Positions 7,797-13,811 of a stretch of 33,574 bases of DNA are shown here, in pieces. The notes under the pieces were generated by a model. It saw only the letters and a program-made list of their open reading frames with translations. It was not told where the DNA came from and searched no databases. The stretch lies in UHGV virus genome UHGV-0219389. One strand, written 5' to 3'. This DNA is from a virus. The translations under genes and the position numbers were made by a program. Each line of letters starts with the position of its first letter. Position 1 is the stretch's first letter.

Positions 7797-8047
7797 TGAA
7801 AGAATACCGCTATTCCGGCCCGGCCAGCGGCGTCACGCTGTCGGACGGAACCGAAATCCTGCTCTGGCCGGGGAAGACGGTTTCCCTGCCGGAGGAGCAT
7901 GACTACGTGAAGGTACTGGTGGCGCTGAAACATCTGACGCCGGTACCTGAAGAGACTAAACCCGCCGGCACACCGGCTGTGCAGTCACCAAAGCGCAGAA
8001 GCAGCAGTGACAGCGAAGTGAAAACGGAGGACACCCATGGCAGCTAA
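7796..8047 (+). CDS. hypothetical protein
   Basis: Small ORF coupled between the gp37-like and sheath genes. Confidence 0.4.
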   Translation: MKEYRYSGPASGVTLSDGTEILLWPGKTVSLPEEHDYVKVLVALKHLTPVPEETKPAGTPAVQSPKRRSSSDSEVKTEDTHGS

Positions 8048-9464
8048 CTATCTGCATGGTCCCGAAACCATTGAGGTGGAAAACGGTGCCCGCCCGGTTA
8101 AAACGGTGAAATCTGCCGTTATTGGCCTGATTGGTACCGCCCCGATGGGGGATGTCAATACGCTGGTACAGTGCCTGTCTGAGAAAGACGCAGCGGCATT
8201 TGGCAGCCAGTTCACCGGCTTTACCATTCCGCAGGCGCTGGATGCGATTTATGACCATGGTGCAGGTACCGTTCTGGTCATTAACGTCCTCGACCCGGCG
8301 AAACATAAAACGGCGATCGAGGATGAGGTGGTTACCTTTGACAAATCGACAGGGCAGGCCAGACTGGCGCATCCGGTTGTCGCTAATGTGGTGGTGAAAA
8401 ACAGTGAAGGCAGCACCTCCCACACGGCGAACACGGACTACCGTGTTGATGCGCAGGCGGGTGTGCTCACGAACCTGGGCAAGGCTATTGAGGCCGGTGG
8501 CAGCGTGAAGGTGAGCTATGAGTACGCGGACCCGTCGAAGGTGACTGCGGCGGACATCATCGGCGGGGTGAACAGCGCCGGAAACCGAACCGGCATGAAG
8601 CTGCTTAACGACAGCTTCAACCTGTACGGCTATTTCGCCAAAATTCTGATTGCGCCGGTGTTCTGCACCCAGAAGAGTGTCGCAGTTGAGCTTATCGCCA
8701 TGGCAGAGAAGCTGGGCGCGGTAACCTACATTGATGCGCCTGTCGGTACCACCTTTGCACAGGCTCTGGCAGGTCGTGGCCCGGAAGGCACCATCAACTT
8801 CAATACCAGCTCCGACCGCGTCCGTCTGTGCTATCCGCATGTGAAGGTATATGACCCGGTGACAAACACAGAGCGTCTGGAGCCGCTCAGCCAGCGTGCA
8901 GCAGGTCTGCGTGCCAGAGTCGATCTGGACAAGGGCTACTGGTGGTCATCCTCCAATCAGGAGATTCTGGGGATCACCGGCGTGGAGCGCCAGCTGTCCG
9001 CGATGATTGATGACCCGCAGAGTGAGGTGAACCTGCTTAACGAACAGGGGATCACCACGGTATTCAGCAGTTACGGCAGCGGCCTTCGTCTGTGGGGTAA
9101 CCGGACGGCAGCATGGCCAACGGTCACCCATATGCGTAACTTTGAGAACGTTCGCCGCACCGGTGATGTGATCAACGAGTCCATTCGTTATTTCAGCCAG
9201 CAGTACATCGACATGCCGATTACTCAGGCGCTGATTGATGCACTGACGGAGTCGGTCAACGCCTACGGTCGCAAAATGACTGGTGATGGTGCGGTACTGG
9301 GCTTCCGTTGCTGGTTTGATCCGGCCCGCAATCCGGAGACGGAGCTGGCCGCCGGGCACCTGTTGCTGAGCTACAAATATACGCCACCACCGCCGCTGGA
9401 GCGACTGACGTTTGAGACTGAGATCACCTCGGAATACCTGTTAACCCTGAAAGGGGGCAACTGA
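8037..9464 (+). CDS. contractile tail sheath protein
   Basis: 475-aa ORF directly before the tube gene; size and position typical. Confidence 0.8.
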   Translation: MAANYLHGPETIEVENGARPVKTVKSAVIGLIGTAPMGDVNTLVQCLSEKDAAAFGSQFTGFTIPQALDAIYDHGAGTVLVINVLDPAKHKTAIEDEVVTFDKSTGQARLAHPVVANVVVKNSEGSTSHTANTDYRVDAQAGVLTNLGKAIEAGGSVKVSYEYADPSKVTAADIIGGVNSAGNRTGMKLLNDSFNLYGYFAKILIAPVFCTQKSVAVELIAMAEKLGAVTYIDAPVGTTFAQALAGRGPEGTINFNTSSDRVRLCYPHVKVYDPVTNTERLEPLSQRAAGLRARVDLDKGYWWSSSNQEILGITGVERQLSAMIDDPQSEVNLLNEQGITTVFSSYGSGLRLWGNRTAAWPTVTHMRNFENVRRTGDVINESIRYFSQQYIDMPITQALIDALTESVNAYGRKMTGDGAVLGFRCWFDPARNPETELAAGHLLLSYKYTPPPPLERLTFETEITSEYLLTLKGGN

Positions 9465-9985
9465 TGTCAAAGATTGAGATAAACCGCATCACGAATGCCA
9501 ACATCTATCTGGATGGTACTAACCTGCTGGGACGGGCTGAGGAAGTTAAACTCCCCGATGTCTCCATGATTATGCAGGAACACAAGGCGCTGGGGATGGT
9601 GGGTAAGGTGGAACTCCCGGCTGGTTTTGACAAACTGGAAGGCGAAATCAAATGGAACAGCTTTTACCGCGATGCGATGCTGTCTGCCGCGAACCCGTAC
9701 AGGTCGCTGGCACTGCAGTGTCGTTCCAGCGTCCAGCGCTACAGCTCGCAGGGGCTGATTGACGAAATCCCGCTGGTCACCTTCCTGACGATTATGTTCA
9801 AGAAGAACCCGCTGGGGACGTTCAAACAGCACGAGAACGCCGAGTTCTCCAGTAGCTTCACCTGCACGTATATCAGACAGGTACTGGATGGTGAAGAGCT
9901 GCTGCAACTGGACTATCTGGCCAACATCTTCCGGGTCGGCGGTGTTGATCAACTGACTGACTACCGTATCAATATCGGGGGCTGA
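9464..9985 (+). CDS. tail tube protein
   Basis: 173-aa ORF with start overlapping the sheath stop. Confidence 0.75.
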   Translation: MSKIEINRITNANIYLDGTNLLGRAEEVKLPDVSMIMQEHKALGMVGKVELPAGFDKLEGEIKWNSFYRDAMLSAANPYRSLALQCRSSVQRYSSQGLIDEIPLVTFLTIMFKKNPLGTFKQHENAEFSSSFTCTYIRQVLDGEELLQLDYLANIFRVGGVDQLTDYRINIGG

Positions 9986-9987
9986 CG

Positions 9988-10269
9988 GTGAGTGTTGAAC
10001 TGACGGATAAAGGAGGACGATGTGCGGCACTGGGCATGTCAAATGGTACGTGGTTTACCCTCCTTGATATTCCGGGGGTGGAAACCCTTTTTAATACCCG
10101 TAAAACCAATGACCCGATTGACTGCACACGTTCAAAGGCCCGCAAACTGGCGGATTTGATTGAAGCATGGGAGCCTCCCGACCACTGGTTCTCCGGCATC
10201 GGCAAATCTGAGGGAAAGACGCTTCTCATCGCTTTCCTGCGTAACTGCAAGGGGTTTCGCACTTGCTGA
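9988..10269 (+). CDS. hypothetical protein
   Basis: 93-aa ORF with non-ATG start; followed by a terminator-like hairpin. Confidence 0.3.
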   Translation: MSVELTDKGGRCAALGMSNGTWFTLLDIPGVETLFNTRKTNDPIDCTRSKARKLADLIEAWEPPDHWFSGIGKSEGKTLLIAFLRNCKGFRTC

Positions 10270-10275
10270 CATCAC

Positions 10276-10298
10276 AGGGGCTCCGGCCCCTTCTTCTT
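10276..10298 (+). terminator. intrinsic terminator-like hairpin (AGGGGC-tccg-GCCCCT + TTCTTCTT)
   Basis: GC stem with 4-nt loop followed by a T-rich run. Confidence 0.4.
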
Positions 10299-10366: not shown

Positions 10367-10702
10367 ATGTCACAGACCCCATCCGATACTTTTAAATTGT
10401 CTTATCCCTTCACCACTGCTGCAGGTACCAGAATTGAGCTGGTTGAACTGAAACGCCTGACGGTAAAAGACCTGAAGCAGGTGCGCAAAATCAGCAAAAA
10501 CCCGGCAGACTGGGACGAACCGCTGATTGCCCGCAGTACTGGTCTTCTCCCGGAAGATCTCGACAATATGGATCTGGCTGATTACCTGCAGTTACAGAAA
10601 CGATTTCAGCTCATCACGGGGATGGGTGAGAGCAACCAGGGCGCTGACGCAGGCGCAGGGGCTGCTGGCGAGATGGTTCCGGTTTCAGCCGGGGGAGATT
10701 GA
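10367..10702 (+). CDS. tail assembly chaperone (E/G-like)
   Basis: 111-aa ORF between tube and tape measure; acidic Gly/Ala-rich C-terminus. Confidence 0.55.
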   Translation: MSQTPSDTFKLSYPFTTAAGTRIELVELKRLTVKDLKQVRKISKNPADWDEPLIARSTGLLPEDLDNMDLADYLQLQKRFQLITGMGESNQGADAGAGAAGEMVPVSAGGD

Positions 10703-10784
10703 TGCCCTCGATACTGACGATCTGGAGATGTGGCTGGAGCAGGCTGAAGAGCAAATAAAAAGCGAGTACGGCGACAAATCATAG
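10527..10784 (+). CDS. alternative-frame extension of the tail chaperone (E'/GT-like), reached by frameshift
   Basis: ORF overlapping the last 176 nt of the chaperone in the +1 (equivalently -2) frame and running 82 nt past its stop. Confidence 0.4.
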   Translation: MPAVLVFSRKISTIWIWLITCSYRNDFSSSRGWVRATRALTQAQGLLARWFRFQPGEIDALDTDDLEMWLEQAEEQIKSEYGDKS

Positions 10785-10859
10785 TACAGACAGCCGCCAG
10801 TAGCGGCTGTTCTGCGTTATTCCCTCACGTCTTTTCACCTTCCCCGGAGGTTAACCACT

Positions 10860-13811
10860 ATGTCGGGACAGTTTTCAGTCGGCGTTGTTATCGGCGGGAT
10901 GATTGGCAGCACATTCCGTTCTGCAATGAGCGGTACCCGCCGTGCGCTTGATTCCCTGAGCGATACCTCACGCCGCCTGCAGGAACGTCAGAACGCTTTA
11001 ACCCGTGCAACAGAACGTTATGGTCAACTGGGTTCTTCCCGGATGCAGCATCTCAACAGCGAGCTGCTGCGGGTAAGCCGCACCATGGAGCAAATTGAGC
11101 GCCAGCAGCGCCGTCTGTCAGCGGCATCCGCTACCAGTGATGCGCTGAAAGCTAACCGCATGGCGCTGTATGGTCAGGGGATTGAAGCGTATGGCATGGC
11201 ACAGACTGTTTATCATACGGTTTCCCCTGCCGTTCAGCAGTCCATGTCTTTTCAGGACAAAATGATTGATATGTCGATCACCGCAAAATATGACAATAAA
11301 ACGCGGGATGCACTTGCCGGACAGATAAAAGGCTGGGCGCTTAAATACAATCAGTATCAGGATGAGCTGCAGGAGGCGGTGGGTTCACTCATCAGCGACA
11401 ATATTGATAATGTGTCAGATATCGGTTTTCTGATGCCGGATATTGCCCGCGCGGCAACGGCAACACGCACGTCTGCTCAGGACTGGGCAAAAGTGGCCGC
11501 AGTCTGGCAAAACTCCCTGAAAGGTGCGGCCAGAGATTTTGGTGCCGTTCAGAATATTATGGCTTATGCCGGTGACCAGGGGTCATTTGAAATCCCGGAT
11601 CAGGTCAAGTGGATGCAGTCCCTGGCCCCAATGATGGCGGGTATTGCCAGTGGAAAAGAGGCTGTTGCTGAAATCGGGGCCAGTCTCCAGATAGCAAAAA
11701 TCGGTGCAGGTTCCACCGACGAAGCAGCCAATAATTTTAAAAACTTTCTTACCAAAATTTTTGCCCGCGATACTCAGAAACAGTTTGCTGATCTGGGTAT
11801 TGATTTGCAGGGATCTATTGCGAGTTATAAAGCTGCGGGGATCTCTCCGATTGAAGGGATGTTGAGTGTTATAGAACGTTACCTCAATGCCAAAAGCCCC
11901 GAAGCGCTGGCCGGCTTCAAATCAGCCATGAAAATAAAGAATGATACGGCAAGAGATGAGGCACTTCAGGCTCTGGCGAAAAACTTTGGTCTGGGCGATA
12001 TGTTCGCGGATATGCAGGTCATGGCATTTATCCGCCCGATGCTGGCCAACATGGACAGATATCGAGAGATCCGTGCCGGTGCTCTCAGGGCTGCGGATAA
12101 CGATTTGCTTGCCAGTGCTTATGATCAGCGGCTGAAATCTCCCCTTGAAGCCACTAAAACACTTATGGTCAGCAGTCGCGATCTGGCAATTACGCTGGGC
12201 GATCAATTAGCTCCATCTTTTATTTCTTTGACTCAGGAACTGCTTCCACTCATTCAGGGGGCAAAACACTGGGTAGCGACTCACCCGCAATTTGTCAGTG
12301 GGGCTTTTAAGCTCATCAGTGCGCTCCTTGCGATTAAGATAGCGACTGTTGGTCTCAAACTGGGGCTGAATCTCCTTATTTCCCCCTTTGTAAGTGTCTG
12401 GAAAAATGCTGTTTTACTTCGGGCCAACTGGCTTCGTCTGTCGCTCGCACTGGGGCAAGGCGGTAAGCTCCGCTGGCTGGTGACCGGATTTAGCGCCGTC
12501 GCCAGAGGAGCCAGAACACTGAGTGGCGTGCTCTCCGGGGGGCTGGTTCGCGGAATTATGCTCGCCGGACGTGCTGTTCTCTGGATTGGACGTGCGCTGA
12601 TGATGAATCCCATCGGTCTCGTTATCACCGCTGTCGCGGCAGCAGCTTACCTTATCTACCGCAACTGGGGGGCAGTCAGTGGCTGGTTTAAACAGCGCTG
12701 GGCAGACATTCAGGAAGCCTTTAACGGCGGCATTGTGGGAATTGGTAAGTTACTGATTAACTGGTCGCCGGCAGGCCTGCTCTATAAAGCCTTTGCGGCT
12801 GCGCTGAAATATTTCGGCGTTGCTCTGCCGGCAAAGTTCACCGACTTCGGTGGCCATCTTATCGACGGTCTGATTAACGGTATCAAAAACAAATGGGGGT
12901 CGCTCAAATCCAGTGTAACCGGAATGGGTGACAGCATCAGTAGCTGGTTTAAACAGTGCTGGGCTGACATTCAGGAAGCCTTTAACGGCGGTATCGCGGG
13001 AACTGGTAAGCTGCTGATTAACTGGTCGCCGGCAGGTCTGCTCTGTAAAGCCTTTGCAGCTGCGCTGAAATATCTTGGTGTTGATCTGCCGGCAAAGTTT
13101 ACCGACTTCGGTGGCCATCTTGTCGATGGTCTGATTAACGGTATCAAAAACAAATGGGAGTCGCTCAAATCCAGTGTAACCGGAATGGGTGACAGCATCA
13201 GTGGCTGGTTCAGCGAAAAGCTGGGCATTCATTCGCCGAGCCGCGTGTTTATGGGCTTTGGTGACAATATCGCGCAGGGGGCCGCCATTGGCCTGCAGCG
13301 GACCACTCCGCTTGCAGCTCTGGCCGGGCAGCGAATGGCCAGTGAACTGCTCCCCAGAATGCCCGTGAGCATTCAGGGGCCAGAAATACGGGATAACACT
13401 TCAGGTGTTCGCTTCAGTATGCCGTTGCCCGATATCAATGGGTTTATGTCGTCTGCTAAAAATGCGATCGGAGCCGTAATCAATAGTTTGTCTTCCATGC
13501 CCGCTATTCCGCTCTCCACCCGGGCATCGATTTTACCAGGGCAACGTCTGGCAAATGAGATGACACCGGATGTTCCCCGTATCCCCTCGCCTGAAATCCT
13601 GGCTGCCGGATATTCAGGCCGTGGTGCAACTGCAACCGGCGGTGGAACGTCTGGTGGTATCCAGGTCAGCTTTAATCCTCAGTTTTTCCTCAATGGCAGG
13701 GAAACCACAGCGCCTGCAGGACTGACTGGTGCCCTGAATATGAGTCTGCATGAGCTGGAAAAAATGCTGGAGCGTCTGCTGGCTCAGAAACAACGTAAGG
13801 AGTACCGCTGA
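10860..13811 (+). CDS. tail tape measure protein
   Basis: 983-aa ORF, coiled-coil-like N-terminus, hydrophobic central segments, internal tandem duplication. Confidence 0.85.
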   Translation: MSGQFSVGVVIGGMIGSTFRSAMSGTRRALDSLSDTSRRLQERQNALTRATERYGQLGSSRMQHLNSELLRVSRTMEQIERQQRRLSAASATSDALKANRMALYGQGIEAYGMAQTVYHTVSPAVQQSMSFQDKMIDMSITAKYDNKTRDALAGQIKGWALKYNQYQDELQEAVGSLISDNIDNVSDIGFLMPDIARAATATRTSAQDWAKVAAVWQNSLKGAARDFGAVQNIMAYAGDQGSFEIPDQVKWMQSLAPMMAGIASGKEAVAEIGASLQIAKIGAGSTDEAANNFKNFLTKIFARDTQKQFADLGIDLQGSIASYKAAGISPIEGMLSVIERYLNAKSPEALAGFKSAMKIKNDTARDEALQALAKNFGLGDMFADMQVMAFIRPMLANMDRYREIRAGALRAADNDLLASAYDQRLKSPLEATKTLMVSSRDLAITLGDQLAPSFISLTQELLPLIQGAKHWVATHPQFVSGAFKLISALLAIKIATVGLKLGLNLLISPFVSVWKNAVLLRANWLRLSLALGQGGKLRWLVTGFSAVARGARTLSGVLSGGLVRGIMLAGRAVLWIGRALMMNPIGLVITAVAAAAYLIYRNWGAVSGWFKQRWADIQEAFNGGIVGIGKLLINWSPAGLLYKAFAAALKYFGVALPAKFTDFGGHLIDGLINGIKNKWGSLKSSVTGMGDSISSWFKQCWADIQEAFNGGIAGTGKLLINWSPAGLLCKAFAAALKYLGVDLPAKFTDFGGHLVDGLINGIKNKWESLKSSVTGMGDSISGWFSEKLGIHSPSRVFMGFGDNIAQGAAIGLQRTTPLAALAGQRMASELLPRMPVSIQGPEIRDNTSGVRFSMPLPDINGFMSSAKNAIGAVINSLSSMPAIPLSTRASILPGQRLANEMTPDVPRIPSPEILAAGYSGRGATATGGGTSGGIQVSFNPQFFLNGRETTAPAGLTGALNMSLHELEKMLERLLAQKQRKEYR
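12682..13203. repeat. intragenic tandem duplication, 2 x 261 bp (87 aa), in the tape measure gene
   Basis: Near-identical protein units WFKQ(R/C)WADIQEAFNGG...VTGMGDSIS repeated head to tail. Confidence 0.85.

Follow-up and report, generated by a model that had tools for sequence, protein, structure and literature searches.

A predicted +1 frameshift at a conserved CGA_UUU_C site in the gene for the tail assembly chaperone of a BcepMu-like prophage

In the virus genome UHGV-0219389, the gene for the tail assembly chaperone probably directs the synthesis of a second, longer protein by means of a programmed +1 frameshift at the site CGA_UUU_C (10601-10607), as judged from comparative analysis of related sequences. 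The longer product would carry a C-terminal extension read from an overlapping +1 frame. The DNA analyzed, referred to here as the window, is the whole 33,574-nucleotide stretch of this genome, taken as one strand, with coordinates counted from window position 1. By its sequence, the window is the morphogenesis region, or tail module, of a BcepMu-like (Bcepmuvirus) prophage; the segment 9400-11400 shares 99.8% identity with Escherichia phage PhiKM (Bcepmuvirus) and about 86% with a clone of Klebsiella phage KP12.

Two overlapping frames in the chaperone gene

The features of the locus that bear on the frameshift are the following, ORF standing for open reading frame.

10367-10702, + strand: short tail assembly chaperone ORF (frame 0, gpE-like, 111 residues; Pfam Phage_TAC_7, E-value 5.5e-21)
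10601-10607, + strand: proposed +1 shift site CGA_UUU_C (Arg79 CGA, Phe80 UUU, then C)
10608-10784, + strand: +1-frame segment for the E'-like C-terminal extension (58 codons and the TAG at 10782-10784)
10623-10625, + strand: TGG, an invariant +1-frame Trp codon, which in the window stands 5 codons past the shift site
10689-10697, + strand: G-rich run CCGGGGGAG, encoding Pro-Gly-Glu of a conserved QP(G/S)E motif in the +1 frame

The frame-0 ORF is a member of the Phage_TAC_7 family (PF10109), which it matches over residues 8-81 with 74.8 bits against a cut-off of 25; it also matches phrog_166 (tail protein), and a GGAG lies 8 nucleotides upstream of its ATG. The conserved TAC_7 core takes up residues 1 to about 82, and residues from about 85 to 111 make an unconstrained tail, the frame-0 length in homologues varying among 90, 104, 106, 111 and 113 residues. 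The open +1 frame extends from 10527 to 10784 (10527 minus 10367 gives 160, which is 1 modulo 3), overlaps the chaperone frame by 176 nucleotides and continues for 82 nucleotides past its TGA at 10700-10702. This geometry had been described in an earlier note made from the window alone, and it proved exact on recount. To judge from sequence matches, chance alone does not account for the second frame: it is recognized by phrog_8286 at 7.9e-34, and its C-terminal half gives a weak match to Pfam Phage_P2_GpE, with an E-value of 0.022 for the ORF alone and 0.0015 within the predicted fusion.

To place these frames in a wider context, we assembled 79 viral-contig loci found with the window protein as query, 48 loci from one-genome-per-species contigs, 46 further viral-contig loci found with the BcepMu, Pseudomonas and Ralstonia homologues, and the annotated phage records of BcepMu, P2, Mu, Pasteurella, Wolbachia WO and Pseudomonas Bise. 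A scan of viral contigs with P2 gpE returned near-identical P2 copies only. The relatives belong to phages of gamma- and beta-proteobacteria, including those of Salmonella, Pectobacterium, Burkholderia (BcepMu among them), Pseudomonas and Ralstonia. The locus is also present, with its frames intact, in 641 of 5426 complete E. coli genomes. One 99%-identical copy of the enterobacterial prophage segment was found in an actinobacterial draft assembly (locus L089, NZ_PJIO01000028.1, 'Arthrobacter sp. GMC3', an 8.2-kb contig) and probably represents contamination of the Arthrobacter assembly.

The relation between the frames was determined at 182 loci by applying two hidden Markov models, one of the chaperone core and one of the E'-like domain, to stop-to-stop pieces of the three forward frames. 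At 172 of these loci the E'-like domain is +1 relative to the chaperone frame, confirming the earlier proposal that the second frame is +1 and not -1. It lies in the -1 frame at four loci (P2, Pasteurella and two relatives), as it also does in Wolbachia phage WO, which was examined separately. At the remaining six (L076, L098, L115, L132, L081 and L182) both parts share one frame, in every case through insertions or deletions (indels).

A common allele touches the frame-0 tail. A C-to-T change at 10637 (loci L020 and L021; protein P0026) converts the frame-0 codon CAG to TAG, cutting the chaperone to 90 residues; read in the +1 frame, the change is silent (ACC to ACT). This 90-residue E. coli allele is recorded on 914 contigs. 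If the prophages carrying it are functional, it shows that the final 21 residues of frame 0 can be dispensed with.

Position of the change of frame

Synonymous and non-synonymous differences were tallied pairwise in both frames over 77 ungapped sequences, giving the following synonymous fractions.

Up to 10603: frame 0, 0.5-0.9 (0.75 in the last interval); +1 frame, 0.06-0.3
10604-10618: frame 0, 0.51; +1 frame, 0.30
10619 to the +1 stop: frame 0, 0.01-0.30; +1 frame, 0.50-1.00

The coding signal moves from frame 0 to the +1 frame at 10604-10619. Both frames are therefore coding in divergent homologues, with the switch at a defined point; the tally implies that the +1 frame is translated at least 70 nucleotides upstream of the G-rich run, while the tail of frame 0 evolves without constraint. 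The earlier note had regarded a second frame not conserved in homologues as grounds for abandoning the frameshift; the frame is kept and is under purifying selection.

This selection extends across distant hosts and bears directly on the possibility that the +1 frame survives as a decaying relic, or that its expression depends solely on slippage at the DNA or RNA level, by indels or by transcription. Such an explanation could draw on the six loci that hold both parts in one frame. It is nevertheless hard to credit, given the strength of the selection, the intact frames of the locus in the complete E. coli genomes and the composition of the junction, which lacks a homopolymer long enough for slippage of RNA polymerase (its longest run is T3).

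The earlier note had pointed to a G-rich run near the end of the overlap, and this run is present as CAGCCGGGGGAG at 10686-10697, including G5 at 10691-10695. As the implied shift site, placed at 10689-10697 with a +1 shift on GGG_G or a -2 shift on GG_GGA_GAU beside UGA, it has evident attractions. The run stands two codons before the TGA in the window, much as the lambda and P2 sites sit a few codons ahead of their stops; G_GGG_GAG_AU would permit re-pairing of tRNA-Gly and tRNA-Asp; and some database ORFs are fused exactly at the run (P0004, P0006-P0009 and P0011; loci L076 and L098). These fused ORFs, however, differ by single-base homopolymer indels, and the indels of other assemblies are scattered, as is typical of sequencing errors. 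Moreover, frame 0 ends 21 or 63 nucleotides earlier in a large share of homologues, at GTT TAG (10679-10681, 7 codons earlier) or at 10637-10639 in the 90-residue allele. The run itself is degraded by substitutions silent in the +1 frame (CCT/CCA GGGG, CCGAGTGAG), and purifying selection acts on the +1 frame over the 70 nucleotides upstream of it. A shift at the G-rich run is accordingly a very remote prospect.

The G5 run (10691-10695) is in its own right a recurrent indel site in public assemblies (P0004, P0006-P0009 and P0011; L076, L098 and L081), through a G4 or the deletion of a neighboring C. The outcome is an apparent single-ORF fusion of 138-194 residues. These variants are most likely homopolymer sequencing errors, and they could mislead the annotation of frameshift sites.

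The enterobacterial clade alone places the switch no finer than 10604-10622, and a tighter bound comes from other clades. A +1-frame stop close upstream in the Ralstonia, Pandoraea and Pseudomonas clades means that the frame opens only 8 nucleotides before the TTT of Phe80; the earliest frame-0 stop comes 33 nucleotides after it. A Trp residue (W6) is shared by all 19 diverse +1-frame extensions that were aligned (25-83% identity), lying 3-6 codons after the Phe across loci and only 3 codons after it in the Pseudomonas, Burkholderia and Iodobacter clades. Between the opening of the +1 frame, the invariant Trp and the frame-0 stop, UUU_C is the sole slippery motif that is always present. Taken together, the earlier stops, the broken G-run, the selection on the +1 frame from about 10619 and the invariant Trp place the shift about 95 nucleotides upstream of the stop, at UUU_C (10604-10607). 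Two of the loci with both parts in one frame put the join near UUU_C, each as a single observation: L115 has a 1-nucleotide deletion 17 nucleotides upstream of the TTT, and the in-frame protein of L132 agrees with the +1 sequence of relatives starting no more than about 5 codons past the TTT.

The invariant Trp also bears on the reading of the +1 ORF as a separate small gene with a start of its own, for example GTG at 10626, and no frameshift. This GTG is the start used by gene callers and corresponds to ORF residue 34, from which phrog_8286 aligns; furthermore, BcepMu gp42 and Komp_PAO1_1 CDS0016 are annotated as stand-alone ORFs. The Trp, however, lies upstream of the GTG, which is replaced by GCA, GTA, CTG or CTA in relatives. 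No ATG, GTG or TTG precedes the E' domain at 14 of 131 loci, and a start accompanied by a motif resembling a Shine-Dalgarno (SD) sequence occurs at only 20 of 131. Nor is there a start codon in the +1 frame of the Ralstonia and Pseudomonas clades between the upstream stop and the Trp. Independent initiation would in addition leave the invariant UUU_C unexplained, and we reject it as very improbable because neither a start codon nor an SD sequence is conserved.

Conservation of the CGA_UUU_C site

Aligned chaperone cores from the 131 non-redundant +1 loci all have the Phe80 codon as TTT followed by C (131/131). The four nucleotides TTTC are kept in 93 of 93 distinct 63-nucleotide contexts, forming a 4-nucleotide island of 2.0 bits between variable flanks, and the codon after the TTT varies among CAG, CTG, CGC, CGG, CAA, CAT, CGT and CTT (Gln, Leu, Arg or His). 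This constraint exceeds what the protein needs: as a control, all other amino-acid columns that are at least 90% conserved use mixed synonymous codons (for example, Glu as GAA 114 times and GAG 17 times, and Asp as GAC 81 times and GAT 50 times). TTT is, besides, the minority Phe codon in the GC-rich loci, and TTT_C accounts for only 9-13% of the Phe codons in flanking long ORFs. For the preceding Arg, 102 of 103 cases use CGA, a rare codon, as against 6 of 128 in another conserved Arg column. On the plus strand of the window, CGATTTC occurs once.

Several points weigh against a programmed +1 shift at this site. The sequences are phylogenetically related and fall into few groups, single-linkage clustering giving only 4 clusters at 60% amino-acid identity and 13 at 70%. 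The stimulators typical of efficient +1 sites (an SD-like element, a slow A-site codon or a downstream structure) were not found: no SD-like element lies upstream of the site in the enterobacterial clade, the next frame-0 codon in the window, CAG, is common and not rare, and a consensus fold of the downstream RNA over 56-65 homologues (alifold) reaches about -1 kcal/mol, compared with about -45 for single sequences. The extension scores 18.4 bits against Phage_P2_GpE (PF06528), below the Pfam gathering threshold of 23. Finally, the +1 peptide encoded by 10608-10622 is poorly conserved (SSSRG, RKSLG, SNLPG), so that, for the enterobacterial clade taken alone, the shift might occur a few codons downstream of UUU_C.

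Such a downstream shift could take place, for instance, at ACG_GGG_A (10616-10622) just before the Trp, with UUU_C kept for some other reason. In the enterobacterial clade the frame-0 motif Q-x-I-T-G is conserved to about 10621, where the +1 peptide is variable, and GGG_N allows re-pairing at two of three positions. The GGG is not conserved, however (it is GGC in L079), and the Burkholderia, Pseudomonas and Ralstonia clades have no equivalent motif; in these clades only 2-3 codons separate the UUU from the Trp, and UUU_C is the sole slippery sequence between them. A downstream site would also leave both the TTT_C found at every locus and the bias toward CGA unexplained, and we regard it as improbable, if less so than the alternatives above.

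Other candidates were tried and discarded. A hairpin at 10609-10633 is predicted in the window, where 10598-10700 folds at z = -2.3 relative to shuffled sequences; it is not conserved, and with essentially no consensus fold in homologues a downstream stimulatory RNA structure was rejected. A hungry-codon +1 slip on AAA_CGA was set aside on finding that the Lys codon is not conserved. Of the two directions that the earlier note had allowed, +1 or -2, the former is favored, and the latter lacks plausible re-pairing at the conserved junction: in a -2 shift of the Mu type, (A)AA_CGA_UUU_C would put tRNA-Phe on GAU, where it cannot re-pair, and the only G-run (10691-10695) lies outside the conserved shift interval. 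CGA is the only conserved candidate stimulator; it lies 5' of the Phe codon and may promote the shift.

The Pseudomonas clade presents a somewhat different site. In L086 (1720-1745), for example, GAG_GUG_UUU_CGG has an SD-like GAGG two bases upstream of the UUU and CGG in the A site, and in these respects resembles the prfB +1 signal more closely than does the enterobacterial CGA_UUU_CAG. The stimulators around the common UUU_C may thus differ between clades.

Proposed mechanism and predicted product

The CGA_UUU_C site would allow two proteins to be made from one start codon. Most ribosomes would stay in frame 0 and produce the short chaperone, composed of a gpE-like core of about 82 residues and a dispensable tail, while a minority would shift +1. 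We infer that the shift occurs on the ribosome, where peptidyl-tRNA-Phe (anticodon GAA), held on UUU through a G.U wobble, would re-pair one base further on at UUC with a Watson-Crick G:C pair. Alternatively, an incoming Phe-tRNA could bind UUC directly while tRNA-Arg(ICG) holds CGA by a weak I:A wobble. Either route would yield the same protein, with translation resuming at AGC (10608) in the +1 frame and continuing to the TAG at 10782-10784. The predicted fusion comprises 80 + 58 = 138 residues (MSQ...LQLQKRF followed by SSSRGWVRATRALTQAQGLLARWFRFQPGEIDALDTDDLEMWLEQAEEQIKSEYGDKS); its junction would read ...LQKRF followed by SSSRGWVRATRALTQAQGLLARWFRFQPGEIDAL..., and the predicted trans-frame peptide is ...YLQLQKRFSSSRGW....

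In Pfam, the fusion shows TAC_7 at residues 8-82 (79.2 bits) followed by Phage_P2_GpE at residues 100-132. Comparison of the 19-sequence extension profile with P2 E' by hhalign gives an E-value of 3.7e-5 and a probability of 71% over 33 columns, and the extension is likely homologous to P2 E', its Pfam match lying below that database's own threshold. Neither the search of the fusion against PDB sequences nor that of NCBIfam models returned a match. A search for natural hard-wired fusions at UUU_C, made with the predicted fusion in a set of 5.8 billion proteins, found only indel chimeras joined at scattered positions (P0023, P0060 and the G-run group), which are most likely assembly errors.

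By analogy with lambda G/GT, the N-terminal part shared by the two products would bind the tape measure protein, and the tape measure complex would receive the tube protein through the extension (PMC5009743). The efficiency of the shift would then set the ratio of the products.

Gene order and neighboring features

The genes around the chaperone are arranged as follows.

8037-9464: tail sheath gene (annotation in the PhiKM and KP12 relatives)
9464-9985, + strand: tail tube gene (Pfam Phage_tube, 2.9e-53), in the canonical place upstream of the chaperone
9988-10269, between tube and chaperone: small DUF7739 ORF (weak Pfam match, 24.7 bits, under the 27-bit cut-off)
10860-13811, + strand: tape measure gene (Pfam PhageMin_Tail, 2e-20; tape measure in the PhiKM and RefSeq annotation), in the canonical place downstream of the chaperone pair
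From 13811: gpU-like gene (Pfam Phage_P2_GpU, 1.1e-38)

The sheath, tube, chaperone and tape measure genes thus follow one another in order, the chaperone standing between tube and tape measure with the DUF7739 ORF intervening.

Two hairpins flank the chaperone pair. A strong hairpin at 10791-10811, in the intergenic stretch that separates the E' stop from the start of the tape measure gene, has the form ACAGCCGC-CAGUA-GCGGCUGU; the region 10780-10862 folds at -26.9 kcal/mol (z = -4.5 relative to shuffled sequences), and the stem ACAGCCGCC recurs at the same position in many homologues. It could act as a partial terminator, or as an element of mRNA stability or processing, that sets the expression of the tape measure gene relative to the chaperone. 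A terminator-like hairpin at 10276-10291, AGGGGC-TCCG-GCCCCT followed by TCTTCTTAAT, lies between the DUF7739 ORF and the chaperone gene, inside what is expected to be a single late operon.

Within the tape measure gene, a 261-nucleotide unit is repeated in tandem at 12676-13210 (2.0 copies, 92% match), repeating 87 residues. The gene measures 2952 nucleotides here compared with 2466 in the KP12 relative, and the PhiKM record has a sequencing gap at the repeat. Since the length of the tape measure sets the length of the tail, the duplicated allele would predict a longer tail.

Annotation of the locus and its significance

The records examined do not represent a long product. The RefSeq entry for the locus reads "phage tail assembly protein" only, and the records of PhiKM, KP12, phiE255, Komp_PAO1_1 and Bise contain no joined coding sequence. 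Our literature search turned up no description of a +1 site at UUU_C in this group, although Xu et al. 2004 or Baranov et al. 2006 could hold a +1 case in the family.

BcepMu (AY539836), the type phage of the genus, carries the homologous locus, in which gp41 is the chaperone, gp42 is the +1-frame E' part and TCC_TTT_CGC is present. Its record treats gp42 as the lambda G equivalent, with a -1 slip into gp43, in contrast to the reading given here, in which gp41 and gp42 are joined by a +1 shift. In the alignment (L082, 4859-5364), gp42 corresponds to the +1-frame E' extension of gp41, and the gp43 frame has no counterpart in the window and falls outside the conserved two-domain architecture. 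The frameshift annotation of the BcepMu record is, on this comparison, probably wrong.

A large and widespread branch of the P2 E / Mu 41 family appears to use a +1 shift at a four-base site far from the stop codon. Annotation pipelines and frameshift finders that look for heptamers near the stop would miss sites of the CGA_UUU_C type. The locus is also a small natural model in which the control of low-level +1 slippage can be studied, and the different solutions found within the family form a comparative series.

Comparison with known frameshifted chaperones

Frameshifted tail chaperones are a textbook example of programmed recoding, almost always by a -1 shift near the stop codon. The frameshift pairs of tailed phages are conserved and usually -1, with -1, -2 and +1 shifts all reported, and they follow the two-product logic of lambda G/GT (PMC5009743). 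A +1 shift was proposed earlier for the chaperone of a haloarchaeal myovirus. The frame relation, the conservation in homologues and the likely homology to E' agree in assigning the window locus to the tail-chaperone pairs of the lambda G/GT and P2 E/E' type, as the earlier note had suggested.

A close functional parallel is P2 gpE/gpE+E'. In both systems a TAC_7 domain is followed by a GpE/E' domain, a likely one in the present case (residues 8-82 and 100-132 here, 7-85 and 104-139 in P2), the gene lies between the tube and tape measure genes, and the fusion has a similar length (138 residues here, 142 in P2). In the family alignment even the two shift points are no more than about 3 codons apart, T_TTT_TTG of P2 and WO lying about 3 codons downstream of the Phe80 column. 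The recoding itself differs. P2 shifts -1 at T_TTT_TTG, whereas the window locus would shift +1 at the 4-nucleotide UUU_C (7 nucleotides as CGA_UUU_C), with no X_XXY_YYZ heptamer. GGT_TTT_TTG is present in P2 and Wolbachia WO, and T_TTT_TTG is carried by the -1 loci, including Pasteurella-type phages; the window locus does not fit a -1 shift on such a heptamer. Frame 0 also runs 24-36 unconstrained codons past the shift here, compared with 6 in P2, and the E' ORF ends short of the tape measure start, leaving a 75-nucleotide gap with a hairpin and no overlap. The window locus is thus functionally like P2 E/E+E' and different in its type of recoding.

Lambda, a siphovirus, shifts -1 at G_GGA_AAG and makes GT at a level of about 3-4%; a yield in the low percent range would be expected here if the two systems behave alike. 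The presumed likeness of lambda gpG/gpGT to the present pair lies in two products made from one start in a fixed ratio, by a gene between those of the major tail protein and the tape measure (PMC5009743). The two systems share no detectable sequence similarity.

Phage Mu gp41/gp42 belongs to the same TAC_7 family, whose Pfam description names P2 E and protein 41; its extension also lies in the +1 frame, and its conserved signal also contains the rare CGA. In Mu, a verified tandem -2 shift takes place at GG_GGG_CGA, with CGA in the A site and the G-run in the P site (PMC3458567). The +1 frame is hence reached by -2 in Mu. In the window, CGA comes before the slippery Phe codon and a +1 shift is the simplest account; the conserved junction has no G-run with CGA after it in the A site. 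The Mu site, moreover, lies about 8 codons before the stop, compared with 32 codons here.

The mechanism proposed for CGA_UUU_C has its nearest parallels in argI and in the prfB signal CUU_UGA_C, where the P-site tRNA slips +1 onto an overlapping cognate or better-paired codon. prfB requires an upstream SD sequence and a stop codon in the A site, and the enterobacterial clade here has neither. UUU_Y is documented in E. coli as prone to +1 shifts without a hungry or stop codon (argI UUU_UAU, cited in PMC2790909), and the argI event is regarded as an error and not as a conserved programmed event.

A broader but rather doubtful idea is that CGA_UUU_C constitutes a minimal +1 signal, free of RNA structure and stop codon, in which the I:A-wobble codon CGA, placed in the E or P site, actively favors slippage of tRNA-Phe or its binding out of frame. 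The Mu -2 site also depends on CGA. tRNA-Arg(ICG) on CGA might then be a recurring stimulator of recoding in phage tail chaperone genes, in a family that uses three different shifts. In any case, a single protein family appears to have arrived at three recoding solutions: -1 in P2, -2 in Mu and +1 in the BcepMu-like phages.

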